The notes: a model not told the origin generated them from the sequence alone. A stretch of 64,000 nt of DNA from a candidate division WOR-3 bacterium (GCA_965649165.1 CBFGJT010000001.1:139853-203852); one strand, 5' to 3'; counted from the first letter of the stretch, positions 4,742 to 58,880 are shown. Numbers and translations are program-made.

Positions 4742-4769
4742 ATTATACTTTAAAATAGAAAATTGGCAA
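4742..4769 (-). promoter_or_regulatory. sigma70-type promoter of the ktrB-ktrA-sensor operon
   Basis: TTGCCA (4769-4764), 16 nt, TATAAT (4747-4742). Confidence 0.6.
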
Positions 4770-4805
4770 GGGGACAACTTCAGATAAATAAACATAAAAG
4801 ATGGG

Positions 4806-5972
4806 TCATCTTATTTCGTAAGCTGAAATTACTAATTGGAGTCCAAGGGCCGCACACAATCCCGTTAGGCTACTGAAGATAAAGGGTGCCCGCGGGCCGA
4901 AAAGATTCCAGAGGATACCGGCGAGGATTGATGCTGCCAGCAGTCCCAAACCGGTAATTGCCGCATGCAATCCCAGCATGCTCGCCCGCTGTTTTTCCGG
5001 AGCAATATCGCTGATCAGGGCCTTCTCCAGTCCTTCAGTAAGAGCGCTAAACAGTCCATAGGCAACAAAAAGGATACAGGGCACAGCTACACCGGTTCCT
5101 TTATCCATCAGAGCAAAGCCGAAGTAGACTGCACTGTAAGTAAGGTAACCGGTACTAAGTATTTTTCGTTTACCGATCCGATCGGCTATTCTCCCGGCAG
5201 GAAAGGCAAAAGTGGCATAACTGACATTATAAAGCAAATAAAGAAGCAGAATGTTCAGAGTAGACCAGCCGAGCCGGTTCATTCGCAGCAGGAGAAACTG
5301 ATTGGAGGAGTTGCCAATTGCGAATATACCGATTATGAAAAGAAAACGCCGTAGCGGTGGGGACAGATTTTTTATCCTTAGTGGAGGTAAGGAAACTGAT
5401 TTGCTGGTACGTGGTTCTTTAAGAAAGAAGAGGACGAAGACGCCCAGCGCTGCTGGTATAATTGAGAGCAGAAAGATTTGCTGGTAATTGCGGTGAGCCG
5501 GATTGCCGTGCAGGCGGCTGATAAGAAAAATCGCAATGGCGATACCAAGGGTGGCACCAAGGGTATCAAAGGCTCGGTGCAGGCCGAATGCTCGTCCGCG
5601 GGTTCCGTCGATTGAGGCATCGGCGATAATGGCGTCCCGAGGGGCGACGCGGATTCCTTTCCCGATTCGATCAATTAATCTGCCCCAAAAAACTAAAATC
5701 CAGTTCCCCGAGAGATAAAGTAGCAGCTTGCCTAAGGTGGAACCGGAATAGCCGGTGAGGACCAGTAGTTTACGGCGCTGGAAGCGGTCGGAAATTCTGC
5801 CGGACAGGATTTTGAGCAGGGATGCTGAACTCTCGGCAATCCCTTCGATCAGTCCGAGAATTGCCGGTGGTGTACCTAAGGAGGAAAGATAGAGCGGAAG
5901 CAGGGGATAAACCATCTCGGTGGAGATATCGGTAAGCATACTGGCGATGCCGGCGATAATAATGTTAAACAT
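4806..5972 (-). CDS. Major facilitator superfamily transporter
   Basis: About 12 TM segments; motif A GRISDRFQRRK and its repeat GRIADRIGKRK. Confidence 0.9.
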   Translation of the reverse strand: MFNIIIAGIASMLTDISTEMVYPLLPLYLSSLGTPPAILGLIEGIAESSASLLKILSGRISDRFQRRKLLVLTGYSGSTLGKLLLYLSGNWILVFWGRLIDRIGKGIRVAPRDAIIADASIDGTRGRAFGLHRAFDTLGATLGIAIAIFLISRLHGNPAHRNYQQIFLLSIIPAALGVFVLFFLKEPRTSKSVSLPPLRIKNLSPPLRRFLFIIGIFAIGNSSNQFLLLRMNRLGWSTLNILLLYLLYNVSYATFAFPAGRIADRIGKRKILSTGYLTYSAVYFGFALMDKGTGVAVPCILFVAYGLFSALTEGLEKALISDIAPEKQRASMLGLHAAITGLGLLAASILAGILWNLFGPRAPFIFSSLTGLCAALGLQLVISAYEIR

Positions 5973-5985
5973 AAGTTACCTGTGC

Positions 5986-6014
5986 AGTATAATCGATTAG
6001 CTCAAAGTACGCAA
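5986..6014 (-). promoter_or_regulatory. Putative promoter of the MFS gene
   Basis: TTGCGT, 17 nt, TATACT. Confidence 0.45.
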
Positions 6015-6039
6015 GTTTTTTTATCAGATTTGTGAGCAA

Positions 6040-6068
6040 TTGACTTTGATATCAATGTCAGTTAATAT
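6040..6068 (+). promoter_or_regulatory. Putative promoter of the MBL/CoA-transferase/ACD operon
   Basis: TTGACT (6040-6045), 17 nt, TAATAT (6063-6068); ATG 8 nt downstream; no SD. Confidence 0.55.
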
Positions 6069-6076
6069 CATTAGTT

Positions 6077-6913
6077 ATGGTTTTGGGTGACTTCCGGCTC
6101 GTCCCGCTGTTTGATGGGTATTTTGGGCTTGATGGGGGTGCAATGTTCGGTGTTGTACCAAAGCCTTTGTGGGAGAAAACTAATCCACCAGACGAATATA
6201 ATCGGATTCGTCTGGCACTGAGACCACTTCTGGTGGTTACTCCTAAAGAGCGGATACTGATTGACGCCGGAATCGGAGACAAGTATGATGAAAAATTTGC
6301 CACACGTTACCGGGTTGAAAGAACTTCCACTTTGCTTGATACCCTCAAACTTGCCGGATTTGAGCCTCGTGATATCAGTTTGGTGATTCTGACACATTTG
6401 CATTTTGACCACTGCGGTGGGGCAACGAAACGGGAGAGGACGCGAGTATTACCTACTTTTTCCGAAGCCCGATACATAGTGCAGGCAGTAGAGTGGCAGG
6501 AGGCAATTGCACCAAACCGAAGATCCCGGGCGTCATATTTACCGGAAAATTTTTTGCCCATCCAAGAATCAGGACAACTGGAATTAATAAATGGTTCGTG
6601 CGAAATTGTTGCCGGCGTGGAACTGATTCATACCGGTGGTCACACTCGTGGGATGCAGGTTGTCAAGATCACTAATGGGCAGGATACCGCCATTTTCTGG
6701 TCGGATATGATTCCTACCCGGGGCCACATCCCGGTGCCCTATATTATGGGTTATGACCTTTTTCCGCTGGACTCCATGGAACAGAAGGAGAAACTGTTGA
6801 ATCAAGCAATTGCCGGTGGATGGTTTTCTTTTCTGGAGCACGATCCGGAGGCGGTCGCCGGCAGAATATATTATGAAAATGAGAAATACCGTTTCGAGGA
6901 AATTAATGATTAA
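6077..6913 (+). CDS. MBL-fold metallo-hydrolase (YtnP-like)
   Basis: THLHFDHCGG metal motif; LDGGAMFGVVPKPLW N-terminus; GGHTRG; FLEHDP. Confidence 0.85.
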   Translation: MVLGDFRLVPLFDGYFGLDGGAMFGVVPKPLWEKTNPPDEYNRIRLALRPLLVVTPKERILIDAGIGDKYDEKFATRYRVERTSTLLDTLKLAGFEPRDISLVILTHLHFDHCGGATKRERTRVLPTFSEARYIVQAVEWQEAIAPNRRSRASYLPENFLPIQESGQLELINGSCEIVAGVELIHTGGHTRGMQVVKITNGQDTAIFWSDMIPTRGHIPVPYIMGYDLFPLDSMEQKEKLLNQAIAGGWFSFLEHDPEAVAGRIYYENEKYRFEEIND

Positions 6914-6925
6914 GGAGGAATATAT

Positions 6926-8782
6926 ATGAGCACTACTGATTGGCGAGTAAAATATGCTCATAAATTAAAGATCGCAACTCAGGCACTCGAGGTCCTGCAA
7001 CCAGGGGACCGGATTTTCATCGGTTCCGCCTGCGGTACGCCGCAACGGCTGGTTCGGGCACTGGCTGACCGACCAGTGGAAGATGTGGAGGTGACTCATC
7101 TGCTGACGCTTGGCGTAGCCCCTTATGCTGAGGAGGCGCTTGCGGGTAAATATCGGGCAAACTCATTTTTCATCAGCGCCAATGTGCGCGATGCGGTTCA
7201 GGAGGGTAGAGCTGATTATACGCCGATTTTTCTTTCGGAAATACCGAAGCTTCTGCGTTCAGGTCGGCTGCCGATTGACGTAGCATTGATCCAGGTGACC
7301 CCACCTGATGATCATGGATTCTGCAGTTTTGGGGTTTCTGTTGATATTACCAAGCCGGCAGCGGAAGTGGCGAAACATGTGATTGCTGAAGTAAATCCGC
7401 GGATGCCACGGACGCTTGGTGACAGTTTTATTCACATTTCACAGATCGAGGCACTTGTGGAGAATGATGTCCCAATTTACGAGTTTATTACGCCCGGCGA
7501 GAGTGAAGTTGCCCGCCGAATTGCCAAGAATGTGGCAGATCTGATTCCAGATGGAGCCACAATTCAAGTCGGCTACGGTGGAATTCCGAATGCCCTCCTG
7601 TTTTATCTGAAAGACAAGAAGGACCTCGGGGTTCATACTGAGGTCTTTTCTGATGGCATTATTGACCTGATTGAAGCTGGCGTCATTAACAACCGGAAAA
7701 AGACGCTTCATCCGGGCAAGGTTATTGCTTCATTCTGTATGGGTTCGCAGCGGCTTTATGAATATATTCATAACAACCCGATGTTTGAATTTCATCCGGT
7801 AGATTACACCAATGATCCTTATGTAATCGCACAGAATGAGAAGATGGTCTCTATTAACTCGGCACTTGAAATTGATCTGACCGGGCAGGTGTGCGCCGAT
7901 TCAATCGGCTACAAGTTCTATTCCGGTATCGGGGGGCAGCTGGATTTTGTCCGTGGAGCAGCAAGGGCAAAGGATGGTAAACCAATTATTGTTCTGAAGT
8001 CGACCCGTGATAATGATCAGTTTTCGAGGATCGTGCCGGTGCTTTCTGATGGTGCTGGGGTAGTGACTTCCAGGGGTGATGTCCATTATGTTGTGACCGA
8101 GTGGGGTGTGGCATATCTACATGGCCGATCAATCAGGGAGCGTGCCCTCGCCCTGATTTCCATTGCTCATCCCAAGTTTCGAGCTGAGTTGCTGCGTCAA
8201 GCAAAGGAACGGCACTATGTCTACCAAGACCAGCCGGAGATGCCCCTTGTTGCTGCCCGTTATCCGGAGGAGTTTGAAACTAAGGTGCGGCTTCAGGATG
8301 GCACGATGGTTCTCATCCGGCCGATCAAGCCGACCGACGAACCGGCGATGCGCGAATTGTTTTATTCCTTTTCCCGGGATACGGTTTTTTACCGTTATTT
8401 CAGTTATATCAAGGCGATGCCACATGAGAAACTTAGCAAATTTGTCAATATTGACTATGAGAAAGAGATGGCGCTGGTGGCGGTGATCCGGGAAAACGGT
8501 GATGAGCACATCGTTGGTTCAACCCGTTACTATGTTGATCCATCGAGTGGACTGGCCGAGTTTGCAATTGAAGTACAGGACGAGTATCAGAACCGGGGTA
8601 TTGGTACTGCACTGTTCAACCATCTCATCCGGGTGGCGCGGATGAAAGGGGTGAGGGGGTTTGTCGGGTATGTTCTTGATTCCAATACCCGTGCTTACCG
8701 TCTGGTGACCAAGGCAGGATTCCCACTTGAGACAAAGTGGGAGGATGGAGTGTATATTCTGACACTGAGGTTCGAGAAATGA
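6926..8782 (+). CDS. Acetyl-CoA hydrolase / family I CoA-transferase fused to a C-terminal GNAT domain
   Basis: GVHTEVFSDG (catalytic Glu); GIGGQLDFVRGA; VTSRGDVHYVVTEWG; GNAT with AEFAIEVQDEYQNRGIGT acetyl-CoA-binding loop. Confidence 0.85.
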   Translation: MSTTDWRVKYAHKLKIATQALEVLQPGDRIFIGSACGTPQRLVRALADRPVEDVEVTHLLTLGVAPYAEEALAGKYRANSFFISANVRDAVQEGRADYTPIFLSEIPKLLRSGRLPIDVALIQVTPPDDHGFCSFGVSVDITKPAAEVAKHVIAEVNPRMPRTLGDSFIHISQIEALVENDVPIYEFITPGESEVARRIAKNVADLIPDGATIQVGYGGIPNALLFYLKDKKDLGVHTEVFSDGIIDLIEAGVINNRKKTLHPGKVIASFCMGSQRLYEYIHNNPMFEFHPVDYTNDPYVIAQNEKMVSINSALEIDLTGQVCADSIGYKFYSGIGGQLDFVRGAARAKDGKPIIVLKSTRDNDQFSRIVPVLSDGAGVVTSRGDVHYVVTEWGVAYLHGRSIRERALALISIAHPKFRAELLRQAKERHYVYQDQPEMPLVAARYPEEFETKVRLQDGTMVLIRPIKPTDEPAMRELFYSFSRDTVFYRYFSYIKAMPHEKLSKFVNIDYEKEMALVAVIRENGDEHIVGSTRYYVDPSSGLAEFAIEVQDEYQNRGIGTALFNHLIRVARMKGVRGFVGYVLDSNTRAYRLVTKAGFPLETKWEDGVYILTLRFEK

Positions 8783-10912: not shown

Positions 10913-10985
10913 TGGAGCTGACCCGATTCGAACGGGCGACCCCCTGCTTGCAAAGCAGGTGCTCTCCCAACTGAGCTACAGCCCC
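10913..10985 (-). tRNA. tRNA-Ala (TGC); CCA not encoded
   Basis: Reverse complement GGGGCTGTAGCTCAGTTGGGAGAGCACCTGCTTTGCAAGCAGGGGGTCGCCCGTTCGAATCGGGTCAGCTCCA; cloverleaf with T-loop GTTCGAATC. Confidence 0.97.
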
Positions 10986-11001: not shown

Positions 11002-11029
11002 ATAATAGCATTATGAATTTCAAAGTCAA
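11002..11029 (-). promoter_or_regulatory. Promoter of tRNA-Ala
   Basis: TTGACT, 16 nt, TATTAT with TGn extension; ends about 17 nt before the tRNA. Confidence 0.65.
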
Positions 11030-11376: not shown

Positions 11377-11404
11377 TTGACAACGATAGTCATGGGGTTA
11401 AACT
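11377..11404 (+). promoter_or_regulatory. Promoter of the lipoprotein gene
   Basis: TTGACA (11377-11382), 16 nt, TAAACT (11399-11404). Confidence 0.6.
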
Positions 11405-11991: not shown

Positions 11992-12019
11992 TTGCCTTTT
12001 ATTGTGCGAGATGTATAAT
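11992..12019 (+). promoter_or_regulatory. Promoter of herA
   Basis: TTGCCT (11992-11997), 16 nt, TATAAT (12014-12019). Confidence 0.6.
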
Positions 12020-12124: not shown

Positions 12125-13750
12125 ATGGATAAGAACTCCGCATTTGACATCGGATATATTATTGAAGTCAGTGGTGAACGGGCACTAGTGGAAATCAGAG
12201 CAGACACCACCAAATCCCTGGCTGAGGACTATTATCCCGGACAACCGGGTTCTTATGTAAAAATTCCCTTTAGGGATTTTAAGATTATCGGCACAGTTAC
12301 TAGTATCCGGGTTGAAACCGGTAGTGCAGTTTCGTCCAGTGCCGGGAGAAAAGTAGCGGAGTGTATACTGTTGGGTACCTTGGAACACGAGGAACGGTTT
12401 CTACGCGGCGTGGCGGTTTATCCCAATGTCGGTCAGCCGGTGCAGATGGTTTCCAGTCGGGAGCTGCACAAAATTTTTTCCGAGTTCTGTGAGTTTGGTT
12501 TTTCTTTTGGCCGGCCGACTGGTGCTAGGGATCAGCGGGTTTACGTGCAGGTAAACCGTTTTTTCGGTGGCCATATTGCGGTACTGGGGACAACGGGCAG
12601 CGGCAAGTCGTTTACGGTTGTGAGTATACTTCAGCAGACGATTAGAAAGTATCCCAACGCTCACATTGTTGTGTTGGATCTGCACGGAGAGTATGCGCAG
12701 GCATTTCCTGAAGGGGTGAATCTCATTAATGCGAGTAATATTGATTTACCTTACTGGGTGCTGAATTTTGAGGAGTTTGTGGATTTGACCGTGGATATGA
12801 ACGAGCCGACCGCCAAGAACCAGATTACAGTAATAAGGGATTCTCTTCTGCGGGCGCGTCAGGCATGGGATACGCGGGAACGCCTTGGACTTGGAGACCA
12901 GATTACTGCCGATTCACCGGTCTATTACGACCTTGATGAACTGATTGCGATGCTACGCGACTGGAATATTCAGATGGTATACAATGGGCTGGGAGAACAG
13001 GAGGAAGGTCCGCTTTATGGGGTTTTTGACAAGTTTCTCATCCGGATGGATAGCCGGATTTCAGATCCGCGCTATCATTTTATGTTCAAGCCCAAGGTGT
13101 ATGACGGGAGTACAAAATTTCCCGATCTGCTGCGTGATTTTCTGTCAATTGATGCTCCACACCGTATGACCGTGATTGATTTGAGCGGCTTACCTTCTGA
13201 TGCAGTTGGCGTAGTAGTGGCGGTAATTACGCGGATTGCATTTGAATTTAATCTGTGGAATCCGCAGCGGGAACGATGTCCAATTCTACTGGTGCTGGAG
13301 GAGGCGCATAATTATGTGCCGAACCGTCCGGACGGGCGATTTACTGCCGCCCGCAGTGCAGTGGAGCGGCTTGCCAAAGAGGGAAGGAAGTACGGTGTTG
13401 GACTGATTTTAGTGAGCCAGCGGCCGAAGGAATTGTCGGAAACCGTACTATCCCAGTGCAATACATTTATAACCATGCGACTGACCAACCCTGCGGATCA
13501 GGATTATGTCAGGCGGCTCGTTCCAGACTCACTTGCCGGTCTTCTGAATACTCTGCCGGCACTGCGGACTGGCGAGGCACTGATAGTGGGCGATTCAGTA
13601 GCTATGCCGACAAGAATGATGGTAGACCCGCCAGATCCACAACCTGGAACTGGCGATATTCAGTTCGCAAAGTGGTGGCAGAGTGGAGTTGACAGTCTGA
13701 GCTTAGAGCAGGTCATTAAACGATGGCGTACTCGTCGTCAGGATGTCTAA
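12125..13750 (+). CDS. HerA/FtsK-family (DUF87-type) ATPase with N-terminal HAS barrel
   Basis: Walker A GTTGSGKS; Walker B LLVLEEAHNY; EGRKYGVGLILVSQRP; LSQCNT; GGAGG SD. Confidence 0.85.
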   Translation: MDKNSAFDIGYIIEVSGERALVEIRADTTKSLAEDYYPGQPGSYVKIPFRDFKIIGTVTSIRVETGSAVSSSAGRKVAECILLGTLEHEERFLRGVAVYPNVGQPVQMVSSRELHKIFSEFCEFGFSFGRPTGARDQRVYVQVNRFFGGHIAVLGTTGSGKSFTVVSILQQTIRKYPNAHIVVLDLHGEYAQAFPEGVNLINASNIDLPYWVLNFEEFVDLTVDMNEPTAKNQITVIRDSLLRARQAWDTRERLGLGDQITADSPVYYDLDELIAMLRDWNIQMVYNGLGEQEEGPLYGVFDKFLIRMDSRISDPRYHFMFKPKVYDGSTKFPDLLRDFLSIDAPHRMTVIDLSGLPSDAVGVVVAVITRIAFEFNLWNPQRERCPILLVLEEAHNYVPNRPDGRFTAARSAVERLAKEGRKYGVGLILVSQRPKELSETVLSQCNTFITMRLTNPADQDYVRRLVPDSLAGLLNTLPALRTGEALIVGDSVAMPTRMMVDPPDPQPGTGDIQFAKWWQSGVDSLSLEQVIKRWRTRRQDV

Positions 13751-23466: not shown

Positions 23467-23549
23467 TGCGAGGAGGGGGAATTGAACCCCCATCCCTTTC
23501 GGGACCAGATCCTAAGTCTGGCGCGTCTGCCAAGTTCCGCCATCCTCGC
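23467..23549 (-). tRNA. tRNA-Leu (TAG); CCA not encoded
   Basis: Reverse complement GCGAGGATGGCGGAACTTGGCAGACGCGCCAGACTTAGGATCTGGTCCCGAAAGGGATGGGGGTTCAATTCCCCCTCCTCGCA; long variable arm. Confidence 0.96.
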
Positions 23550-23567: not shown

Positions 23568-23595
23568 ATTTTAAGCTGCATTATCAAAAAGTCAA
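23568..23595 (-). promoter_or_regulatory. Promoter of tRNA-Leu-tig-clpP-clpX
   Basis: TTGACT, 16 nt, TAAAAT. Confidence 0.65.
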
Positions 23596-23634: not shown

Positions 23635-23662
23635 TTGACTTGAATCAGATTAAGCCTATTAT
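23635..23662 (+). promoter_or_regulatory. Promoter of the PKD-lipoprotein/M14 operon
   Basis: TTGACT (23635-23640), 16 nt, TATTAT (23657-23662). Confidence 0.6.
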
Positions 23663-23673: not shown

Positions 23674-24315
23674 ATGAACTATCGGAACTTGGTCGTCCTT
23701 TCTGTTTTAATTTTGGGCTGCCATAACCAACCGCCTTCGGTGCCGATTATCTTTGGACCGCAGCGGGGGAGACCGAATGACACATTGGTTTTTTCTGTAA
23801 TTTCAGTTGACCGGGAAGGAGATTCAGTTGCCTACCTGTTCGAGTGGAGTAACCAGAGCAGCCCGGGTTGGTCCGAGTGGTTTCCTCAGGGTGTGGAGAT
23901 TGTAACACAGTTTTCATTTGCCGATACCGGAAGCTTCTTTATCCGGGCGAAGGCACGCGACCGCCACCATGAATCCGGCTGGTCAGAGAGTCTGAACGTG
24001 ACTGTCCGGTGGTATGTGCCTTCAGTACCGAGGAAACCGGCAGGTCCGGATACAGTAATCTCCGGCGATAATGTAACATTTTACTCTTCAGCACTTCATC
24101 CTCTGAATGAAAGGGTGGCAATTCAATTCTGCTGGGGTGATACAGTTGATGTGTGGAGTGATTATGTCCTGCCCGGAACGATAGTTGCGAAAAGTCATGT
24201 TTTTACGATAGAGGGGGAGTTTGAAGTTCGCTGCCGAGCAAAGGACGAGCAAGGTTATTTATCTGACTGGTCTGCGCCTGAAACTGTATTTGTTCAAACC
24301 GGGCAGACACGTTGA
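23674..24315 (+). CDS. Lipoprotein with two tandem PKD/Ig-like beta domains
   Basis: LILGC lipobox; two similar repeats (PSVP..P.GP...W...WS.....G....RAKARD/RCRAKD..WS). Confidence 0.7.
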   Translation: MNYRNLVVLSVLILGCHNQPPSVPIIFGPQRGRPNDTLVFSVISVDREGDSVAYLFEWSNQSSPGWSEWFPQGVEIVTQFSFADTGSFFIRAKARDRHHESGWSESLNVTVRWYVPSVPRKPAGPDTVISGDNVTFYSSALHPLNERVAIQFCWGDTVDVWSDYVLPGTIVAKSHVFTIEGEFEVRCRAKDEQGYLSDWSAPETVFVQTGQTR

Positions 24316-27859: not shown

Positions 27860-27887
27860 TTGACCGGAGAATGGAAAGGGGTATATT
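27860..27887 (+). promoter_or_regulatory. Promoter of the ptsH-ptsI operon
   Basis: TTGACC (27860-27865), 16 nt, TATATT (27882-27887). Confidence 0.6.
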
Positions 27888-27899: not shown

Positions 27900-28160
27900 A
27901 TGATCAGAGAGGAAGTTATTATCGGAGGTCCGGTCGGGCTGCATGCCCGGCCTGCAGCGGAGTTTGTAAAGCTTGCTGAACGTTTCAAGTCCCGGGTCCG
28001 GCTGGCAAAGGACGGCATCTGGGTTAATGGCAAGAGCATTCTGGCGATTCTGACTCTGGCGGCGGAAAAGGGGAGTACGGTTATCCTTGAGGTCAGCGGT
28101 GAAGATGAGGACGAGGCATTTCCGGTTCTTAAGGAGAAACTGACGGGTGATGAGGGTTAA
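27900..28160 (+). CDS. ptsH: PTS phosphocarrier protein HPr
   Basis: GLHARPAA (His15 site); NGKSILAILTL (Ser46 site). Confidence 0.95.
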   Translation: MIREEVIIGGPVGLHARPAAEFVKLAERFKSRVRLAKDGIWVNGKSILAILTLAAEKGSTVILEVSGEDEDEAFPVLKEKLTGDEG

Positions 28161-37216: not shown

Positions 37217-39220
37217 CTATTCCGAAATTACCAGCCGGACCGGTGCCTGCCGGTTCAGTCGGAGGAAGTAGATCCCCGGTCTCAGGCTCCGTCCATCAGG
37301 TCCATTAAGGGTCAATGTCCGGTTCTCGCCAGTGATGGTGAAGTTTTGAACGACTCTGCCTGCGGGGTCGGTGAGTTTCAAGGTTGCCGGCTGCTGTATA
37401 GACGGGTTTGGGTAAATTACGGTGGTTGTCCGGGCAGGATTTGGAAGAATCCGCAGGAAGCGCTGATAGTCCGTCCGCCTCGGTTCAGCGGTGGCGATGC
37501 CGGTGGTGTTGGCGCCTTCAATCGCATCAAGATGAAATGCTCCGATGGCGGTGAGTCGAAGAAAACGGATACTGTCCAGGCCGGCAGAACCGATGTCGAG
37601 GTAGGTTTCGGGTGCATCGGCGGTGTCCAGCGTCGTCCACGGTCCGAGCCAGCTCTGGGCACCCTGAACCAGCGCATTGCCGGTGCCGGCTGAGCGGTAA
37701 ATCACCAGTTCACTGCCTTCACGGTTGTAAACCGGTTTTCCCATATCAAGACAGATCGTTTTCCCGTTGTCCAGAAGAAAGGCATCTTCATCATCGGGAC
37801 CAAGCGCCCGGACCGGATAGGTGCGGTGGGAGGATGGGGTGACGAAACTGTTGTAGATATGCCGGAAGGCAAAGAGCGGCGCGGCTGAATCAGGCGTGAG
37901 CCGGATTTCAAGCCAGACTGCGGAGTCACCGGTTGCGGAAACAGTGACATTTTCAATTGTGGTGTCACGATAACCCGGCGCCCGGAATGTAAGGGTATAG
38001 GTGCCGGGTAGATAGAATCGGTGAAAGTCGCCGACCGCTGGACTGTTGTAGCTGAGCCAGTTGGCGGGACGGACCCAGATTTGACAGGGCACCGGCATGC
38101 CGGTGAGCGCATCGGTGACTGTTCCGTGAATTCCCTTTCCTGCCAGATGGATGAACTCCAGTATTGCCGGCAGATTGAGATTAAAGCACGGGTCGATTTC
38201 GGATGCGGGTGGGGTTTTCTGGGGGTGGACTTCAATTGACCAGCTCATCATGCCATAGCCGTAATCAAAATCCTTGGTTGAACCGTTGATTAGATACATT
38301 GAGTCTGCACCCTGGCCATAGGTGTAATGAGTCCAGTGGTCATAGCGGGCAGATAGGAACTGGATCAGGTTCAGTTCGGGAATTGTGTTCTGATAGGAGT
38401 AGCAGTAGCTCCAGGGGTGGGAGATGAAGGTGGTGCCCGCATGATAGGAAATGATGACAACTGCAGGATTACACCATATATGAGCAAGCACCGCCTGGTT
38501 CTCCGGTTCTGAACAAGGGCTTGCCCCCTGAGAAATTTCATCCCCCCACATCCAACCCCAGTTGCGGTTCAAATCAACACTGTTGCCGTTATACCGGCTG
38601 GAACTGATATAACCGTCCGGGTTGTACATCGGCAGGAGATAAATTTCCCGGGTGTCAATCAGGCGGGTAACCAGAGTATCACTGCCGTAGTTGCGGACAA
38701 GATATTTGAGCAGCTCAAAGGTGATCGCCCAGCCGATTTTCTCATCGCCGTGAATGTTGCCTTCAAAATGAACCACAGGCTCCGGTTCATCAATCTGGGG
38801 ATTATCGGAGATTTTCATCATCAGCAGCAGATTGCCCCGGTAACTCAGACCCAAGGTTTCAAGCCGGCAGATTCCCGGATTGTTTGCCGCAATGACCGCC
38901 ATCGTATCGCAGTATTCGGCATAGGTCAAATACCGGCCATCACTTTCTTGAAAGTTGCGTTCATAAGTTCCAGTTATATCAGGTGTTATGACTTGAATCT
39001 TATAACCTTTAGCAGTCAGGAGCCGCTGCTGACCGGCGGTTGCCTCGGCAACAACGCCGGTCCGGTTGACATAATTTACCCAGGCGCCGAAGTTTTCAAT
39101 ATTCTGTACGTCATCTCTGGTGGCATTAGTAATTCGAATGAGATCCCGCGACTGTGCCGGGCTGATGTTGAAAAATGCCATAACTTCAGCAAGTATTAAA
39201 AAAACTCTACTTAATTTCAT
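37217..39220 (-). CDS. Secreted M14 zinc carboxypeptidase with a T9SS/FlgD-like C-terminal domain
   Basis: Signal peptide; IHGDE; NSVDLNRNW; SYHAG; SIEVH; C-terminus LRPGIYFLRL. Confidence 0.85.
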   Translation of the reverse strand: MKLSRVFLILAEVMAFFNISPAQSRDLIRITNATRDDVQNIENFGAWVNYVNRTGVVAEATAGQQRLLTAKGYKIQVITPDITGTYERNFQESDGRYLTYAEYCDTMAVIAANNPGICRLETLGLSYRGNLLLMMKISDNPQIDEPEPVVHFEGNIHGDEKIGWAITFELLKYLVRNYGSDTLVTRLIDTREIYLLPMYNPDGYISSSRYNGNSVDLNRNWGWMWGDEISQGASPCSEPENQAVLAHIWCNPAVVIISYHAGTTFISHPWSYCYSYQNTIPELNLIQFLSARYDHWTHYTYGQGADSMYLINGSTKDFDYGYGMMSWSIEVHPQKTPPASEIDPCFNLNLPAILEFIHLAGKGIHGTVTDALTGMPVPCQIWVRPANWLSYNSPAVGDFHRFYLPGTYTLTFRAPGYRDTTIENVTVSATGDSAVWLEIRLTPDSAAPLFAFRHIYNSFVTPSSHRTYPVRALGPDDEDAFLLDNGKTICLDMGKPVYNREGSELVIYRSAGTGNALVQGAQSWLGPWTTLDTADAPETYLDIGSAGLDSIRFLRLTAIGAFHLDAIEGANTTGIATAEPRRTDYQRFLRILPNPARTTTVIYPNPSIQQPATLKLTDPAGRVVQNFTITGENRTLTLNGPDGRSLRPGIYFLRLNRQAPVRLVISE

Positions 39221-39235: not shown

Positions 39236-39263
39236 AGATTAGTCAGTTATATATCAATGTCAA
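39236..39263 (-). promoter_or_regulatory. Promoter of the M14-M16-M16 operon
   Basis: TTGACA, 16 nt, TAATCT; AGAGGAG SD before ATG 39220. Confidence 0.6.
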
Positions 39264-39927: not shown

Positions 39928-40503
39928 CTAATAAACAACTACGACACCGGAAGGAATTACTTTTGCTCTGACTTGGCGGATGCCGTTGCGTCGTTTGGCA
40001 TAAACCCGAATCCGGTAGTTGTAGCCGGTTCGGGGTTCAAATCCGACGATCGTGCCCGCGATGCTGCGGTTGGGTTTGGAAGGACCTGCCCAAATGAAGA
40101 CGATGGTTTCAATGATCGCCATCGGGTCATAGTAAAACGATTCACGGTCTTCGGGGGAAAGTCCCTTGAAGACCTCGCCGGCGATTTCAACATGAGAGTG
40201 GAAGTTGCCCAGAAAGCGGAGGTGAAATCGGAAACTGAGTTCGCGGCGCCGCCTGATCACCCGCCGGATCATCGCCCAGTCCCGGAAGGTGATGCCGGTC
40301 CGGCTCTTTTCTCCGCCTCGATAGTAGCATACCCGGCGGACTACCAGTCGATGTTCATGGTTGATGGTGCCGAAGAGGAAACCGAATGTTTCCCGTTTGA
40401 ACTTGGCTTCATACCCCCGGCGGGCAAAACTGCACAGTTCGCGGACCGCCGACTCTTCAAACAGAATCGGGGCCCGGAAGCGCACGAGCGGGTGGATTGA
40501 CAT
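39928..40503 (-). CDS. JAB/MPN+ (Mov34) domain metalloprotein, Arg-rich
   Basis: RETFGFLFG (catalytic Glu); GNFHSH; LSPED (JAMM E...HxH...SxxD); 29 Arg in 191 aa. Confidence 0.75.
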   Translation of the reverse strand: MSIHPLVRFRAPILFEESAVRELCSFARRGYEAKFKRETFGFLFGTINHEHRLVVRRVCYYRGGEKSRTGITFRDWAMIRRVIRRRRELSFRFHLRFLGNFHSHVEIAGEVFKGLSPEDRESFYYDPMAIIETIVFIWAGPSKPNRSIAGTIVGFEPRTGYNYRIRVYAKRRNGIRQVRAKVIPSGVVVVY

Positions 40504-40510
40504 TAGCTTT

Positions 40511-40538
40511 ATTTTAGCACTCGCCCGCAGCAGGTCAA
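40511..40538 (-). promoter_or_regulatory. Promoter of the JAB gene (leaderless)
   Basis: TTGACC, 16 nt, TAAAAT with TGn extension; ATG 7 nt downstream; no SD. Confidence 0.6.
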
Positions 40539-40623: not shown

Positions 40624-40651
40624 TAAATACAATAGCTTTTTTCGATGTCAA
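40624..40651 (-). promoter_or_regulatory. Putative promoter of the candidate sRNA
   Basis: TTGACA, 16 nt, TATTTA (the -10 lacks the final T). Confidence 0.4.
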
Positions 40652-40686: not shown

Positions 40687-40714
40687 TTGAATTGAGGCGG
40701 TAAAAAATTATATT
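40687..40714 (+). promoter_or_regulatory. Promoter of pcm (leaderless)
   Basis: TTGAAT, 16 nt, TATATT; GTG start 5 nt downstream. Confidence 0.5.
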
Positions 40715-40719: not shown

Positions 40720-41376
40720 GTGGAATCAAAAAATGAATTCAGTCAGCGTCGGAAGCTGATGGTAGAAGAACAGATTGCTGCCCGCGGTGTCAAGGACGAG
40801 CGGCTTCTGACGGCGATGCTGAAGGTGCCGAGACATCTTTTTGTCCCGGAAGGTTTTGTGCATCAGGCTTATGAAGATTATCCTTTGCCGATCGGTCATG
40901 GGCAGACAATTTCTCAGCCCTATATTGTGGCGGTAATGACCGAGGCATTGCAGGTTGGGAAGCAGCACCGGGTGTTGGAGGTTGGCACCGGTTCTGGTTA
41001 TCAGACCGCCCTTCTGGCGGAACTGGCGGGAATGGTATATACAGTGGAAATAATTGAGGAACTTTCGATCCGGGCGCGGCAGATTCTCAACCGGCTGGAT
41101 TACCGGAACATCAGGTTCAAAGTCGATGATGGCAATGAGGGTTGGAAGGAGTTCGCCCCCTATGACCGGATTATCGTTACCGCTGCGGCAGAGTCAATTC
41201 CTTATGCCCTTGTCGAGCAATTGAAGGAGCAGGGCCGGCTGGTAGCACCGGTGGGACCGGTAGGGGCACAGAGTCTGATTTTAGGGGTGAAGCACGGGCA
41301 ACGGCTGGTGCAGCGATCATTGATGAGCGTGGTATTTGTGCCACTGGTGCGGAGCAAGCCTTCTGTTGACTGCTGA
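40720..41376 (+). CDS. pcm: Protein-L-isoaspartate O-methyltransferase
   Basis: VPRHLFVP; LPIGHGQTISQPYIVA; LEVGTGSGYQ; APYDRIIVTAA; FVPLV. Confidence 0.95.
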   Translation: MESKNEFSQRRKLMVEEQIAARGVKDERLLTAMLKVPRHLFVPEGFVHQAYEDYPLPIGHGQTISQPYIVAVMTEALQVGKQHRVLEVGTGSGYQTALLAELAGMVYTVEIIEELSIRARQILNRLDYRNIRFKVDDGNEGWKEFAPYDRIIVTAAAESIPYALVEQLKEQGRLVAPVGPVGAQSLILGVKHGQRLVQRSLMSVVFVPLVRSKPSVDC

Positions 41377-41393
41377 AATAATTCTTTTATATT
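41366..41393 (+). promoter_or_regulatory. Promoter of tRNA-Pro (and probably the hpt-ade operon)
   Basis: TTGACT (41366-41371), 16 nt, TATATT (41388-41393). Confidence 0.65.
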
Positions 41394-41401
41394 GTCATTG
41401 G

Positions 41402-41476
41402 CGGGGCGTAGCGCAGCTGGTTTAGCGCGCTTGGTTCGGGACCAAGAGGTCGCTGGTTCAAATCCAGTCGCCCCGA
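41402..41476 (+). tRNA. tRNA-Pro (CGG); CCA not encoded
   Basis: CGGGGCGTAGCGCAGCTGGTTTAGCGCGCTTGGTTCGGGACCAAGAGGTCGCTGGTTCAAATCCAGTCGCCCCGA. Confidence 0.96.
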
Positions 41477-52430: not shown

Positions 52431-52458
52431 ATATTACTGATATACGATTACAAGTCAA
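52431..52458 (-). promoter_or_regulatory. Promoter of the rpmF-plsX operon
   Basis: TTGACT, 16 nt, TAATAT. Confidence 0.6.
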
Positions 52459-52882: not shown

Positions 52883-52910
52883 TTGACTGAGATGGCTTTG
52901 AAGATAGGAT
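52883..52910 (+). promoter_or_regulatory. Promoter of the DUF4177-like gene
   Basis: TTGACT, 16 nt, TAGGAT. Confidence 0.55.
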
Positions 52911-52935
52911 TAGCGTGAAGAACAAAGGAGTTAAA

Positions 52936-53181
52936 ATGGCAAAATGGGAATACAAGTTTCTGCAGATTGACATCCATATGAGCCCGGTGCTGAAGATGGC
53001 GCGCTGGGGTGTGCAGGTTCCGGGTGAAAAGAAGGCGCGGGATACAATGGAGGGTGTGGAGGCATATGTCAATGATCTGGGCCAGGAAGGCTGGGAGCTG
53101 GTGACGGCGGTTAGCGGTTCGGACCACAGCGGTATCATCACCAAGGCGGTTCTTTTTTTCAAACGCCCGCTACCAGAATGA
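52936..53181 (+). CDS. DUF4177-like small protein
   Basis: KWEYK...VNDLGQEGWELV...FFKRP pattern; AAGGAG SD before ATG 52936. Confidence 0.75.
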   Translation: MAKWEYKFLQIDIHMSPVLKMARWGVQVPGEKKARDTMEGVEAYVNDLGQEGWELVTAVSGSDHSGIITKAVLFFKRPLPE

Positions 53182-53266
53182 GTCTGCCTATAGTAGCAGT
53201 CTAGTGAAGTTTGCGTCCTGCTTCCGAATGGCCCAGATGTGGAATGCCAGGGACCGGAGCACTGAT

Positions 53267-53295
53267 TTGACAACCCAGCCCGTTATAGATAATAT
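53267..53295 (+). promoter_or_regulatory. Putative promoter of the cvpA-like gene
   Basis: TTGACA, 17 nt, TAATAT. Confidence 0.5.
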
Positions 53296-53328
53296 TATCG
53301 GTGATGAAAATGGAGGAGGGATCGGGAG

Positions 53329-53820
53329 ATGAAGTTCAACTGGATTGATATTGTGGCAATTGGTGTAGTGGCTTCGTCTGGTGCGGTTCAGTTTCTGCGT
53401 GCTACCCGGGATTTCTCCCAGGTGTTTTATGAAACAGTCATGCTTATTCTCGCGCTGGTGGGTGCGGTCCGTTTCTTTATGCCGGTGAGCCAGCTGCTCA
53501 ATATTACACCCCCGCTCGCTCTTGGTGTTGTGTTTGCAGTTTTTACGGTCCTGGCACTGCTCATTGCAACCCTGCTTAATCAGGGGCTGGGGTTCAGTCT
53601 TGGCGGGTTTGATTACCTTTTCGGACTGGCGCTGGGGATTGCCGGCGGTTTTGTCTTCGGTCATGCGATTATGCGGACGATGATGCTTCTTTTTCTTGGG
53701 CGCAATCCGGAGCTGGTGGCGGCAATGCATCGTTCCTGGATGGCAAGTCAGGTGCTTTACTTCGGTGCGTTCCGGGAGCTGCTGGGTATTCTGAGAATCG
53801 CTCGGTATAATAATATTTAG
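53329..53820 (+). CDS. CvpA-family membrane protein
   Basis: NWIDIVAI N-terminus; four TM segments; FDYLFGLALGIAGG. Confidence 0.75.
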   Translation: MKFNWIDIVAIGVVASSGAVQFLRATRDFSQVFYETVMLILALVGAVRFFMPVSQLLNITPPLALGVVFAVFTVLALLIATLLNQGLGFSLGGFDYLFGLALGIAGGFVFGHAIMRTMMLLFLGRNPELVAAMHRSWMASQVLYFGAFRELLGILRIARYNNI

Positions 53821-55151: not shown

Positions 55152-55154
55152 GTT

Positions 55155-56657
55155 TCACCCCTGAATTGAAAGGTTGATGTACTCATTATTGCGGATTTTC
55201 GTCCACTCAGGCCCGCCGTCGCCGACAAACTTGGTCTGGCCCTTGCCGCAGAATCCAACATCGGAGATTTTCACCGGACCGGCGAATCCTTCAACATAAT
55301 GAAGGGCATGGAGGGTGCGGGCAGCGAAGTTTGCCGGCTTAACTGTTCGGGTAATTCTGCCATCTTCGATCAGATAACCGATGAGCACCGAAGAGGACAT
55401 GCCGTCCTTGGAAACTGCACCTCCCGCCGTGCCTTCAAGAATAATACCTTTCGGCACATCGGCAATCAACTGGTCAAGCCGGCGCAACCAGGTTTTTTTC
55501 GTTGCCGGCTGAATAAAGGTGTTGGACATCCGGGGTATCCGTGCATCGCCCAGTTCGCTGAATCCGCCACCATTGGGTGCGGTATTGAAATAGGCAGCGG
55601 TCTCGCGATTGTGAATCATTCCCTGAATTGCACCCCGTTCCGCCAGCAGCTTCGTCTGAACTTCTACTCCTTCGTCATCAATGAATTCAGTACCAAAACC
55701 TTCTTCCGGCTTATCGGGGAGCGGTCCGTCCATAATGTTGACAATTTCAGCGGCAACTACACCCCGGGGTAAACCCTTTTCATCAATGATACCCGAATTT
55801 CCTGCCTTGACGATGTCAGCCTCAAAGTTGTGTCCCAGCGCTTCATGGACAAACACGCCGATCGTGGTGTAATGGAGGATGAAATGGGTCAGCGATTGAA
55901 TCTCCCCGGTACTCAGGGTTACCGCATCCTGGAGAGCGACGGTTTTTTCCATCCAGCTCCGGATGTGACGGATTGCCGCCGGAGTCAGCCGGAAGCCTTT
56001 CGGGCTGCGGGCGAGGAGGAATGAGAAGGGCAGGGGATTGCCAAGTCGAGCACGGGTCTGGGTTAGTGTGCCGTCCGGTCCTTTAACCCGGGTGACAAGC
56101 TGGAGAAAGGTCCGGGGCATCACCTGCGTCTTGAATACCCCATCAGTGTCGGCGATTGCCTTCTCCTCCCGCTGAGTGAAAAACCAGAATTCAGTTTTGA
56201 TTTCCATTCCCGGGTTTTTCTGTTCAAGCTGGCGGGCAATGCGGTTGATACCGGCGATCAGGGTGTTGAATATCCGGGCAGCAGGAAAAAGACGTGGCGC
56301 AGTGGTGCCATAGCGCACCCGGCCGGGATTGGGAATCGGTGCGAGCCGGACTGGATGAGGTGGTGGGGGAGTGATATTGAGCAGGGCAACGCCGTCGTCA
56401 ATCGCCGATTTGAGCGATTCGGGGCTGAGCGTGCCGACTTTGATTTCAACCTTTTTCCCCTGATGGAGCAAGCGGAGTTGGATTCGGGCTTTGGCGTTGA
56501 ACGGTTTCTGCAACAGGCGGTCAGGCAGTTGCTGCAGTTCAATGCGCAGGATTTTCTCATACAGAATGTCAGCATAATCAACGCGCTGCCGGGCATAATG
56601 GAGCGCCTGATTGAGAACGGTTTTCACACGGGCCTCATTTTCAATTTCCGGTGACAT
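55155..56657 (-). CDS. tldD: TldD family metalloprotease
   Basis: VHEALGHNFEAD; DDEGV; RMSNTFI; CGKGQ; start placed at ATG 56657. Confidence 0.85.
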   Translation of the reverse strand: MSPEIENEARVKTVLNQALHYARQRVDYADILYEKILRIELQQLPDRLLQKPFNAKARIQLRLLHQGKKVEIKVGTLSPESLKSAIDDGVALLNITPPPPHPVRLAPIPNPGRVRYGTTAPRLFPAARIFNTLIAGINRIARQLEQKNPGMEIKTEFWFFTQREEKAIADTDGVFKTQVMPRTFLQLVTRVKGPDGTLTQTRARLGNPLPFSFLLARSPKGFRLTPAAIRHIRSWMEKTVALQDAVTLSTGEIQSLTHFILHYTTIGVFVHEALGHNFEADIVKAGNSGIIDEKGLPRGVVAAEIVNIMDGPLPDKPEEGFGTEFIDDEGVEVQTKLLAERGAIQGMIHNRETAAYFNTAPNGGGFSELGDARIPRMSNTFIQPATKKTWLRRLDQLIADVPKGIILEGTAGGAVSKDGMSSSVLIGYLIEDGRITRTVKPANFAARTLHALHYVEGFAGPVKISDVGFCGKGQTKFVGDGGPEWTKIRNNEYINLSIQG

Positions 56658-56663
56658 AAACCA

Positions 56664-56690
56664 AGTATAAAAAACCCGGGTAAAAGTCAA
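56664..56690 (-). promoter_or_regulatory. Putative leaderless promoter of tldD-tldE
   Basis: TTGACT, 15 nt (includes a homopolymer run), TATACT; ATG 6 nt downstream. Confidence 0.4.
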
Positions 56691-56714
56691 GCGGGCTCAC
56701 TAGGAGCCCGCTTG
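56688..56714 (-). terminator. Terminator hairpin of the RRM gene
   Basis: Perfect 11-bp stem CAAGCGGGCTC-ACTAG-GAGCCCGCTTG; ACUUUU follows on the minus strand. Confidence 0.65.
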
Positions 56715-56732
56715 TGTAAGGATTTTACTCCT

Positions 56733-57077
56733 TTACCAGCGTCGACCCGAAAAAAAACCGCCACTGTTGCGCCCACCTTTGCGGGGCCCGCGTGAGGGGC
56801 GGTTGGCACCGAAACTGCCACGACTCTCGGTTCTTTCCCGGGCTTCGTTGACGTTCAGTGCCCGGTCATCCAGGCTGTAGCCGTTCAGACCCTGAATCGC
56901 CGCCCGAGCGGCTTCATCGGTAGCCATCTCCACGAAGGCGAACCCACGGGGACGATTGGTGAAACGGTCGGTTACGATGTTTACCGAGACCACCTCGCCA
57001 TGCTGACCAAAAAGGTCACGCAGCTGGGATTCGGTTGCGCTGAAGGGCAGATTGCCCACGAACAAGCGCCTTGTCAT
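56733..57077 (-). CDS. RRM (RNP-1) RNA-binding protein with a Gly/Arg-rich tail
   Basis: LFVGNL (RNP2); RGFAFVEM (RNP1); LNVNEAR; AAGGAG SD before ATG 57077. Confidence 0.92.
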   Translation of the reverse strand: MTRRLFVGNLPFSATESQLRDLFGQHGEVVSVNIVTDRFTNRPRGFAFVEMATDEAARAAIQGLNGYSLDDRALNVNEARERTESRGSFGANRPSRGPRKGGRNSGGFFSGRRW

Positions 57078-57251
57078 ATCTTTACTCCTTTTTGTTTTGC
57101 TCAAGAATCGTTCAACAGGTGGGTTCGCACGGACCAGTTTGGGTTTCAGGTGCCAATGCTGGACACCAGCACCAGGAACGGTTCCAAGCTTCTTTTCCCG
57201 GGTTACATCTACTTATCGTATCGGTTGACACCCGTAATCAGCCGACGTAAA

Positions 57252-57279
57252 ATTATAATAGTCAATTCGGGCCTGTCAA
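57252..57279 (-). promoter_or_regulatory. Consensus promoter of the RRM gene, giving a ~170-nt 5' UTR
   Basis: TTGACA, 16 nt, TATAAT. Confidence 0.7.
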
Positions 57280-57619
57280 ATAAAACTTTACTTTGATTTC
57301 CAGTATTTCCTCAAGTCCGATCATTTATCACTGGTGCAGAGACCGGCGGTTCAAGAATAGGAGTATGTGGTGTGCGCAAACATACACAGATTTATCCTGT
57401 TTACCCTGGGATTATTCAGTTATCTTCGGAAATATGAATGGGTTATAATTTATGGTGTGATTTCTGGGGTTTGCCGGGGTATACCGTGGTGTTATTCGGT
57501 CGTCTGGGAGAGGGGTGGTGTTCCTGGTGATACCGGTGATGTTCGGCAATCTGATTGATTCGATGGGGTGCGGGAAATCAGCCACGAGGCTTTCCAGTTT
57601 GGACTGGTGTTATGTGTCC

Positions 57620-57647
57620 TTGACTTTGGGGTGCTTTCACTTATTAT
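57620..57647 (+). promoter_or_regulatory. Promoter of the ogt-MBL genes
   Basis: TTGACT, 16 nt, TATTAT. Confidence 0.6.
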
Positions 57648-57675
57648 TAACAGATTGAAGCATAGAATTAATAGA

Positions 57676-58209
57676 ATGATCGATGCTACGGCTACGCCGG
57701 ATGGTGCCGGTTGGACTGAGGTGCTGCTGGATTTCGGCTGGGTTCGGGTCCAGCATGACGGCAAGCTTGTCAGGCAGGTTGTGCTGGGTGGACCGGTCCA
57801 GGGACGGTCTGAACCGTGGATGGCAAAGCTCCTGCATCGGGTGTGGCATTACGGTTTGAGCGGGCTGGATTTGAGGTTTGACTTTACAGGCCTGAGCCAG
57901 TTTGCCCGCAGGATACTGGCGGCCTGCGCCCGAATCCGGTTTGGGGAGGTGAAAACCTATGGGGCACTGGCACAGACGGCAGGTTATCCAGGTGCCGCCC
58001 GGGCAGTGGGACAGGTGATGGCACACAACCGGTTTGCCATTTTCTTCCCCTGTCACCGCGTGGTTGGGGCGGATGGCCGGCTGGGAGGGTTTACTGGCGG
58101 CACCGGATTGAAGCGGCGGCTGCTCGAGCTGGAAGGGTGGCGGATTGAGGGCAGTGGGTCCAATGCCCGGCTGCTGAAATTCCGGGATAATGTTTACCGG
58201 GAAAGATAA
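57676..58209 (+). CDS. ogt: Methylated-DNA-protein-cysteine methyltransferase (start uncertain)
   Basis: GEVKTYGALA...AARAVG...NRFAIFFPCHRVVG...KRRLLELEG. Confidence 0.9.
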   Translation: MIDATATPDGAGWTEVLLDFGWVRVQHDGKLVRQVVLGGPVQGRSEPWMAKLLHRVWHYGLSGLDLRFDFTGLSQFARRILAACARIRFGEVKTYGALAQTAGYPGAARAVGQVMAHNRFAIFFPCHRVVGADGRLGGFTGGTGLKRRLLELEGWRIEGSGSNARLLKFRDNVYRER

Positions 58210-58856
58210 TGGAGCAAAAGACAGCACCGGTGATTGAACGGCTGGAGGTCGGGCCGCTTCAGACCAACTGTTACCTACTGAAATCCGGAAACGAGCTGGC
58301 AGTGATTGATCCCGGCGGTGATGGCGCGGAGATCCTGCGTCGGGTGAAGGAGATGGAAGTAACGCTGAAATTTGTGATTAACACCCATGGCCATATTGAT
58401 CATATTGCTGCGAATGGGGAAGTAACCGCGGGCTATCCGGCGGAGATCCTGGTTCACGAGCTGGATGCGCCAATGCTTACGGCACCGGATATGAACCTTT
58501 CAACGCTGATGGGGATGGTTGTTAGTTCACCGGCACCGTCAAGGTTGCTCCGGGAAGGCGACGAGATTAAGATCGGAAGTGAGCGGCTTCAGGTATTGCA
58601 TACACCCGGTCATACACCCGGGAGCATCTGTCTCATTGGTGCTAACTATGCATTTACCGGGGATACTCTCTTTTTAGACTCGGTGGGCAGAGTGGATTTT
58701 CCCGGGGGTTCAGAACGGGCGATGCGGGATTCGCTTGCCCGGCTCCAGCGGATTCTGCGTCGGGAGATGATGCTCTATCCGGGGCACGGTCCTTGTGGCA
58801 CTTTTGGCCGGGCGCTGCTCATAAATCCGTTTCTGGGCGGAGTCTGGACTGTTTGA
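58209..58856 (+). CDS. MBL-fold metallo-hydrolase (glyoxalase II-like)
   Basis: VGPLQTNCY; THGHIDH; HTPGHTPGS; FTGDTLF; YPGHG. Confidence 0.88.
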   Translation: MEQKTAPVIERLEVGPLQTNCYLLKSGNELAVIDPGGDGAEILRRVKEMEVTLKFVINTHGHIDHIAANGEVTAGYPAEILVHELDAPMLTAPDMNLSTLMGMVVSSPAPSRLLREGDEIKIGSERLQVLHTPGHTPGSICLIGANYAFTGDTLFLDSVGRVDFPGGSERAMRDSLARLQRILRREMMLYPGHGPCGTFGRALLINPFLGGVWTV

Positions 58857-58880
58857 CAATCTGAGAAAAATGTCTATTTT
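58853..58880 (+). promoter_or_regulatory. Promoter of ino1
   Basis: TTGACA, 16 nt, TATTTT. Confidence 0.6.

Follow-up and report, generated by a model that had tools for sequence, protein, structure and literature searches.

The textbook optimum for the spacer between the -35 and -10 boxes of sigma70/sigmaA promoters is 17 base pairs (bp), with Escherichia coli using spacers of 15-19 bp, and this optimum is treated as universal and built into promoter predictors and biophysical models. In a 2025 survey of mapped start sites from 49 species and about a dozen phyla, 17 bp was the predominant spacer across species, and a biophysical model in that work takes the 17-bp spacer as its zero-energy reference (PMC12641261). 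Literature searches returned no description of a lineage with a modal spacer of 16 bp. Here we analyse the housekeeping promoters of a candidate division WOR-3 bacterium, starting from a 64,000-nucleotide (nt) stretch of its DNA (GCA_965649165.1, CBFGJT010000001.1:139853-203852; hereafter the window, with positions counted from its first letter), for which a first-pass annotation had noted a preference for 16-nt spacers among promoters picked by eye. The pattern is a clade-structured, quantitative shift of the classical sigma-70 spacing optimum, and it is broader than that annotation had claimed.

Canonical sigma-70/sigma-A promoters share with those of WOR-3 a TTGACA-like -35 box, a TATAAT-like -10 box and a group-1 sigma factor with conserved regions 2.4 and 4.2; judged by proxy, the start point would also lie ~6-8 nt past the -10 box. 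They differ in spacing, as the canonical mode is 17 bp, whereas the genome holding the window has a mode of 16 bp and leaves spacers of 15 and 18 bp essentially unused.

The stable-RNA promoters of E. coli form a special class with a GC-rich discriminator. Like the WOR-3 promoters, these stringently controlled promoters combine a 16-bp spacer with good hexamers and a -10 box lying farther than usual from the start point; in contrast to their GC-rich discriminators, those of the WOR-3 16-bp class are AT-rich. Furthermore, the E. coli class is confined to rRNA, tRNA and ribosomal genes and is controlled by guanosine tetraphosphate (ppGpp), whereas 183 intergenic 16-bp sites precede genes of all kinds in the WOR-3 genome and nothing ties them to ppGpp. 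The 16-bp spacers of E. coli rRNA and tRNA promoters have been described previously (PMC9303308).

Unusual layouts have also been described for the -33/-7 promoters of Bacteroidota sigma-ABfr (TTTG ... TAnnTTTG), whose spacer is described as variable (TTG-N17-23-TANNTTTG), and for the RpoD motif of Chlorobaculum tepidum (bioRxiv 10.1101/172254; PMC7366714). These resemble WOR-3 in that promoters of a primary sigma factor depart from the E. coli layout, but the Bacteroidota -7 and -33 boxes read TAnnTTTG and TTTG, whereas WOR-3 promoters carry TTGAC[A/T] and no TTTG after the TA. Flavobacterium is said to have an optimum of 19 bp, equal to a hexamer spacer of 16 bp. Lastly, in the twist model, spacer length reports how the two boxes are angled relative to each other (Forquet et al. 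2022, PMC9303308). This reading naturally yields a graded 16:17 ratio, as found in WOR-3, but the model covers promoters within one cell, whereas WOR-3 shows a lineage-wide shift of the mode that topoisomerase gene content does not track.

Spacer lengths and the primary sigma factor of the genome

The genome holding the window comprises 1.37 Mb on 30 contigs and is ~76% complete. An annotation-free count of TTGACN-N(s)-TANNNT, with s the spacer length, on both strands of the whole genome gave 21, 241, 125 and 37 sites for s = 15, 16, 17 and 18, and 25-62 sites for each of the other lengths between 8 and 26. With TATAAT as the -10 box, the corresponding counts were 2, 35, 14 and 1. In intergenic DNA, delimited with rough gene calls, 7, 188, 82 and 21 sites were found for s = 15, 16, 17 and 18, and 165 of the 188 sites with s = 16 lie within 300 nt of a gene start on the same strand. 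In comparison with 100 dinucleotide-preserving shuffles, 183 intergenic sites were observed at s = 16 against 4.4±2.2 (80 standard deviations) and 80 at s = 17 against 3.8±1.9 (40 standard deviations).

Either box on its own recovers the other at the same distance. After all 658 intergenic TTGAC sequences, T has its peak at +23, A at +24 and T again at +28, which corresponds to a 16-nt spacer; with 1016 intergenic -10-like hexamers as the anchor, TTG has its upstream maxima at s = 16 (130) and s = 17 (64) over a flat background of ~20. The 16- and 17-nt classes do not share a single -35 box, and 11 of the 21 intergenic hits at s = 18 arise as echoes of sites with s = 16. Lengths of 15 and 18 are essentially absent from this genome, both being at background level. 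After background correction, s = 16 accounts for a genome-wide share of 0.70. The modal spacer of an unbiased genome-wide scan is thus 16 and not 17, and the preference extends beyond the hand-picked set, as the annotation-free, shuffle and single-anchor counts agree.

The first-pass annotation had put the preference at 17 of 22 promoters (77%). Its direction was borne out, and its size was overstated, with ~70% genome-wide and an unbiased 16:17 count of 13:8 (62%) inside the window. Similarly, its statement that all three tRNA promoters use 16 holds within the window but does not extend to the genome, where tRNA promoters are distributed 12:8:1 over spacers of 16, 17 and 15, which is about the genome average. 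This overestimate in a hand-picked set speaks for selection by eye; nevertheless, that the 16-bp pattern as a whole is an artefact of such selection, of base composition or of a repeated element is scarcely credible. Annotation-free counts, shuffles, single-anchor profiles and reversed-pattern controls are concordant, the same code returns 17 in outgroups, and the spacer columns are not conserved in sequence, as they would be in copies of a repeat.

Both spacer classes have the boxes TTGAC[A/T] and TAtaaT with G at -14 and T at -13. The TTGACA-like -35 box is recovered by anchoring on the -10 box alone, from which TTG emerges, and the T, A and T peaks of the TATAAT-like -10 box appear without pre-selection for it. 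Hexamer quality is equal between the classes, the background-corrected share of TATAAT being ~17% in one and 16% in the other. The discriminator following the -10 box is 65-75% A+T in the 16-bp class. Instead of the mode at 17 and the 17 +/- 1 bp range expected of group-1 sigma promoters, the mode is 16 and the range 16-17 only.

The genome encodes a single group-1 sigma factor, an RpoD of 566 amino acids (contig C1:108884-110590, outside the window), which contains the motifs STYATWWI and TRERVRQIE, and thereby the conserved DNA-reading residues of regions 2.4 and 4.2. Its nearest relatives are found in metagenome-assembled genomes (MAGs) labelled candidate division WOR-3 (52-77% identity) and Candidatus Stahlbacteria. 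The remaining three hits to the sigma-70 family are open frames of ~190-220 amino acids. As the genome has one primary sigma factor and the classes share boxes and flanks, one holoenzyme presumably reads both.

Spacing among relatives, outgroups and the WOR-3 phylum

Named genomes were counted with the same pattern and a built-in reversed-pattern control. The mode is 16 in 11 of 11 WOR-3/Stahlbacteria relatives and 17 in outgroups from the Firmicutes, Planctomycetes, Aminicenantes, Desulfobacterota and Actinobacteria; the count thus reproduces the textbook spacing in the groups expected to have it. Counts at s = 16, 17 and 18 were as follows.

WOR-3/Stahlbacteria relative, example 1: 633, 330, 77
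WOR-3/Stahlbacteria relative, example 2: 571, 158, 84
Christensenellaceae: 183, 328, 169
Lachnospiraceae: 217, 389, 171
Brocadia: 275, 368, 174
Aminicenantes: 122, 203, 84
Desulfobulbaceae: 28, 76, 42
Propionibacteriaceae bacterium Y1685 (Actinobacteria): 7, 23, 20
Auraticoccus (Actinobacteria): 5, 25, 11

The lineage hence departs from the 17-bp norm, with a mode of 16 in the genus, family and class of the window and 17 in the outgroups. E. coli K-12 (4.6 Mb) has 42 sites of TTGACN-N17-TANNNT against 146 of the reversed pattern, and 24 against 212 at N18; it was dropped as a control in favour of the named outgroups because consensus-like sites are strongly depleted there, unlike in WOR-3 genomes. 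Fibrobacteria MAGs (G013-G015; L054, L058, L060) show no excess of TTGAC...TANNNT over the reversed pattern at 16, 17 or 18, and their primary promoter motif must therefore differ from the classical one. A Hydrogenobaculum MAG (G023; L042) has 93, 91 and 63 sites at s = 16, 17 and 18 with controls of ~45 and looks mixed. Because of these counts, the 16/17 trait may not be confined to WOR-3.

A survey of 121 genomes drawn evenly from the phylum of the window in GTDB (WOR-3) revealed 12 families (numbered f1, f2 and so on) with a mode of 16, nine with a mode of 17, four with approximately equal excess at both and six with little of the motif. The mode is 16 in 12 of 12 genomes of the window's family and 18 of 18 of f15, whereas sites at 16 outnumber those at 17 in none of the eight genomes of f19 and none of the six of f9. 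Expressed per genome as the s = 16 part of the combined excess at 16 and 17, the 16 share is tight within families and differs among them.

f9, f19 and f26: ~0
f27: 0.15-0.30
f4: 0.51-0.55
f17: 0.56-0.61
f2: 0.60-0.61
f15 (18 genomes): 0.67-0.92, mostly 0.68-0.78
f1 (family of the window): 0.69-0.89
f7: 0.79-0.81
f5 and f6: 1.0

Direct spectra of the two extremes bear this out: 199 kb of the strict-17 genome G059 (f19) contain 7 sites at s = 16, 42 at s = 17 and 4 at s = 18, and 342 kb of the strict-16 genome G042 (f5) contain 5 at s = 15, 102 at s = 16 and 15 at s = 17 (Fisher p = 2e-19). In a tree of RpoD, the class of the window, including Stahlbacteria, forms one well-supported clade with a mode of 16, and in a second clade families with a mode of 16, a mode of 17 and intermediate ratios are intermixed. 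Given the well-supported branches, the 16 state must have changed at least four times. Owing to the family-tight shares and the repeated changes on the RpoD tree, the trait behaves as an inherited, quantitative set point of narrow tolerance that is expressed in whole base pairs. The distinct, tight 16:17 ratios among families of one phylum show that the spacing optimum evolves, and promoter predictors applied to WOR-3, Stahlbacteria and perhaps further uncultured lineages are best given a lineage-specific spacer prior.

Candidate determinants of the spacing

We lean slightly towards reading the sites as genuine sigma-A/RpoD promoters with a heritable optimum of ~16.3 bp and narrow tolerance, for which a small difference in holoenzyme geometry is the most likely cause. 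The preferred spacing would lie between 16 and 17 bp, with ~70% of promoters taking 16, ~30% taking 17 and almost none 15 or 18. The holoenzyme would hold sigma domains 2 and 4 at a slightly different relative distance or rotation, with the core subunits as a possible seat of this difference, and hundreds of promoters would have co-evolved with it. It is by elimination only that holoenzyme geometry emerges as the likeliest cause of the shift.

Shifted RNAP-sigma geometry, one of two causes offered in the first-pass annotation, found no support in the length of sigma-A, its -35-reading residues or its alignment columns, the residues contacting the -35 box being identical between 16-mode and 17-mode families. 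Linker length was rejected as a cause, since the linker counts 155 residues in both modes. In the class of the window, including Stahlbacteria (L086-L092, L014), sigma region 3.0 reads PAHI[IL]D[AT][IM]NK, compared with PVHMIETINK in E. coli (E458 -> D, with neighbouring changes). This variant (PAHIIDAINK) had seemed a candidate within the nearer relatives but was likewise rejected as the determinant, because only that class carries it and the canonical sequence is retained in other 16-mode families. The same class is missing the TGn extended -10 motif, which the variant may explain; in the strict-17 family f19 the Glu is retained and TGn is strong (T 78%, G 64%). Extended -10 TG itself was rejected as well, being strong in strict-17 G059 and missing in strict-16 G042, yet also missing, by eye, from the 17-bp sites of Aminicenantes. 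Strict-16, mixed and strict-17 relatives with near-identical DNA-reading regions of sigma offer a natural comparison for the distance between sigma domains 2 and 4.

Several observations weigh against the holoenzyme reading or the family pattern on which it draws. The span from region 2.4 to 4.2 of sigma-A counts 155 residues in 16-mode, 17-mode and outgroup proteins with no indel, no column of the RpoD alignment separates the modes, and the sigma factors of f13 (16-mode) and f11 (17-mode) are identical through regions 2.4-3.0. The step to holoenzyme geometry was reached by elimination, in a protein comparison that covered sigma. In strict-16 G042 (L132-L151), the distance from -10 box to ATG peaks at 5-6 nt, compared with 6-7 nt in the window's genome. 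The family calls come from one strict pattern with its reversed-pattern control. Moreover, the trait is labile and graded, which a soft physical variable such as DNA twist fits equally well, and the superhelical density actually prevailing in the cell cannot be read from gene presence.

Alternatively, an ordinary enzyme would act on a less negatively supercoiled, more twisted chromosome in 16-mode lineages, which would bring the boxes into register at 16 bp, with the family-specific 16:17 ratio as a readout of an equally family-specific superhelical density. The twist model predicts that short spacers are favoured on relaxed DNA (Forquet et al., PMC9303308), and a continuous physical variable would give just such a graded, labile trait. 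We nonetheless consider this unlikely, as gyrA was found in 32 of 34 family representatives, including those of strict-16 families f5 and f6, and reverse gyrase occurs in 16-mode (f2, f8), mixed (f24) and 17-mode families (f12, f14, f25, f26), with none at either extreme (f5/f6 and f9/f19). Carriage of gyrase or reverse gyrase genes is not associated with mode and was rejected as the determinant, leaving the supercoiling adaptation proposed in the first-pass annotation without support from near-universal gyrA or from reverse gyrase. By our arithmetic, a 1-bp shift (~34 degrees over ~17-23 bp) would also need a ~4-6% change in twist, equal to the entire usual superhelical density even with all of it converted to twist. 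If topology were the cause, spacer spectra would report the superhelical state of uncultivable organisms. Kinetic tuning, in which the polymerase binds best at 17 and these small genomes, with their near-consensus hexamers, select a slightly sub-optimal 16 for short-lived open complexes or fast escape, as E. coli does at rRNA and tRNA promoters, may be linked to exact starts on leaderless mRNAs. It would be in keeping with the 16-nt spacers of E. coli stable-RNA promoters (PMC9303308) and with the unusually many near-consensus promoters here, ~40% of which abut a start codon (E. coli K-12 has only 42 at s = 17). A universal optimum of 17 with tuning, however, does not predict families in which the excess at 17 (f5 and f6) or at 16 (f9 and f19) is lacking altogether; in addition, hexamer quality is equal between the classes, discriminators are AT-rich rather than GC-rich, and the Firmicute outgroups, where consensus promoters are also plentiful, nonetheless have their peak at 17, so that we regard this explanation as distinctly unlikely.

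An accessory general factor on sigma domain 4, the beta flap or the spacer DNA could shift sigma-4 by ~1 bp and leave sigma and core unchanged. Its gain or loss could explain the repeated changes among related families, and no determinant was found in sigma; intermediate, tight ratios (0.27, 0.53, 0.75) are not expected from simple presence or absence, and such a factor appears improbable. With somewhat less than even confidence, we suggest that box spacing, rather than being fixed for bacterial RNA polymerase, is an evolvable, narrowly tuned set point that would have been moved repeatedly by up to 1 bp inside a single phylum, between strict 17 and strict 16, and followed by hundreds of promoters in each genome, with its determinant outside the known DNA-reading parts of sigma. 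That determinant would sit in the core enzyme, a non-conserved part of sigma or an unrecognised partner.

Start-point geometry and promoter sites of the window

Leaderless start codons and tRNA 5' ends were used as proxies for start points, with open reading frames (ORFs) of at least 60 codons opened by ATG or GTG. Genome-wide, the distance from -10 box to start codon has a sharp peak at 5-9 nt and no peak at the control spacers 13 and 20. Of the 241 sites with s = 16, 98 end 5-9 nt before an ATG or GTG, as do 51 of the 125 with s = 17; this share of ~40% of the consensus-like promoters implies, on the sequence, widespread leaderless mRNAs in this genome, examples in the window being 40511-40538, 40687-40714, 52883-52910 and 57620-57647. 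In relatives, this leaderless-type geometry was found at 47 of 102 sites in strict-16 G042 and 6 of 42 in strict-17 G059. Mature 5' ends of 11 tRNAs begin 7-9 nt past a -10 box, at 8-9 nt for s = 16 and 7-8 nt for s = 17. Because of this distance, the 11 tRNA precursors (including tRNA-Pro, 41366-41476) would carry a 5' leader of ~0-2 nt. With start codons and tRNA ends as proxies, the -10 boxes would thus be placed where canonical ones should be.

Averaged over 104 sites with s = 16, the distance from -10 box to start codon is 7.05 nt, compared with 6.28 nt over 50 sites with s = 17 (p = 0.009). With this longer distance in 16-bp promoters, the -10 box would move ~1 base farther from the start in this genome and the -35-to-start distance would stay near the canonical 35. 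As a universal rule, a constant -35-to-start distance was rejected, since it fits this genome and fails in G042. The promoter of G042 as a whole is ~1.5 bp more compact than the canonical layout.

The tRNA-Pro promoter (TTGACT-N16-TATATT-N8-tRNA) has identical hexamers in the genome of the window and three relatives of the same family (G000, G028, G071 and G049), in which spacer and discriminator differ in sequence and both lengths are kept. In two further relatives its hexamers differ and the spacing is again 16 bp. These patterns support the view that the sites are working promoters under functional constraint.

Direct reading returned TTGNNN-N16-TANNN[T/A] on the given strand at all 17 coordinates that the first-pass annotation had assigned a 16-nt spacer, each facing a downstream ORF or tRNA.

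4742-4769, minus strand: promoter TTGCCA-N16-TATAAT, 72 nt upstream of a TrkH/KtrB-type gene (2915-4669; Pfam)
11002-11029, minus strand: promoter TTGACT-N16-TATTAT, 16 nt upstream of tRNA-Ala (10913-10985)
11377-11404, plus strand: promoter TTGACA-N16-TAAACT, 23 nt before the ATG of an ORF of 152 amino acids (putative lipoprotein in the first-pass annotation)
11992-12019, plus strand: promoter TTGCCT-N16-TATAAT, 105 nt upstream of herA (12125-13750; Pfam)
23568-23595, minus strand: promoter TTGACT-N16-TAAAAT, 18 nt upstream of tRNA-Leu (23467-23549)
23635-23662, plus strand: promoter TTGACT-N16-TATTAT, 11 nt before the ATG of a PKD-domain protein gene (23674-24315), divergent from the tRNA-Leu promoter
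27860-27887, plus strand: promoter TTGACC-N16-TATATT, 12 nt before the ATG of ptsH (HPr) at 27900 (Pfam)
39236-39263, minus strand: promoter TTGACA-N16-TAATCT, 15 nt before the ATG of an M14 carboxypeptidase gene (37217-39220; Pfam)
40511-40538, minus strand: promoter TTGACC-N16-TAAAAT, 7 nt before the ATG of an ORF of 191 amino acids (39928-40503), leaderless-type geometry
40624-40651, minus strand: promoter-like site TTGACA-N16-TATTTA, final base of the -10 box A, not T
40687-40714, plus strand: promoter TTGAAT-N16-TATATT, 5 nt before the GTG of pcm (40720-41376; PCMT in Pfam), leaderless-type geometry
41366-41393, plus strand: promoter TTGACT-N16-TATATT, 8 nt before tRNA-Pro (41402-41476)
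52431-52458, minus strand: promoter TTGACT-N16-TAATAT, 29 nt before the ATG of an ORF of 61 amino acids (putative rpmF in the first-pass annotation)
52883-52910, plus strand: promoter TTGACT-N16-TAGGAT, 4 nt before the GTG of an ORF of 88 amino acids (putative DUF4177 protein in the first-pass annotation)
57252-57279, minus strand: promoter, perfect TTGACA-N16-TATAAT, ~150 nt upstream of an RRM RNA-binding protein gene (56733-57104; Pfam)
57620-57647, plus strand: promoter TTGACT-N16-TATTAT, 7 nt before the TTG start of ogt (57655-58209; Pfam), leaderless-type geometry
58853-58880, plus strand: promoter TTGACA-N16-TATTTT, 30 nt before the ATG of ino1 (58911-60005; Pfam)

The label JAB, given earlier to the ORF at 39928-40503, is without Pfam support, and the sRNA proposed as the product of the site at 40624-40651 has no match in Rfam. 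The names ktrB, herA, ptsH, M14, pcm, RRM, ogt and ino1 agree with Pfam. Unlike its leaderless neighbours, the RRM-protein gene would carry a long 5' leader (57105-57279).

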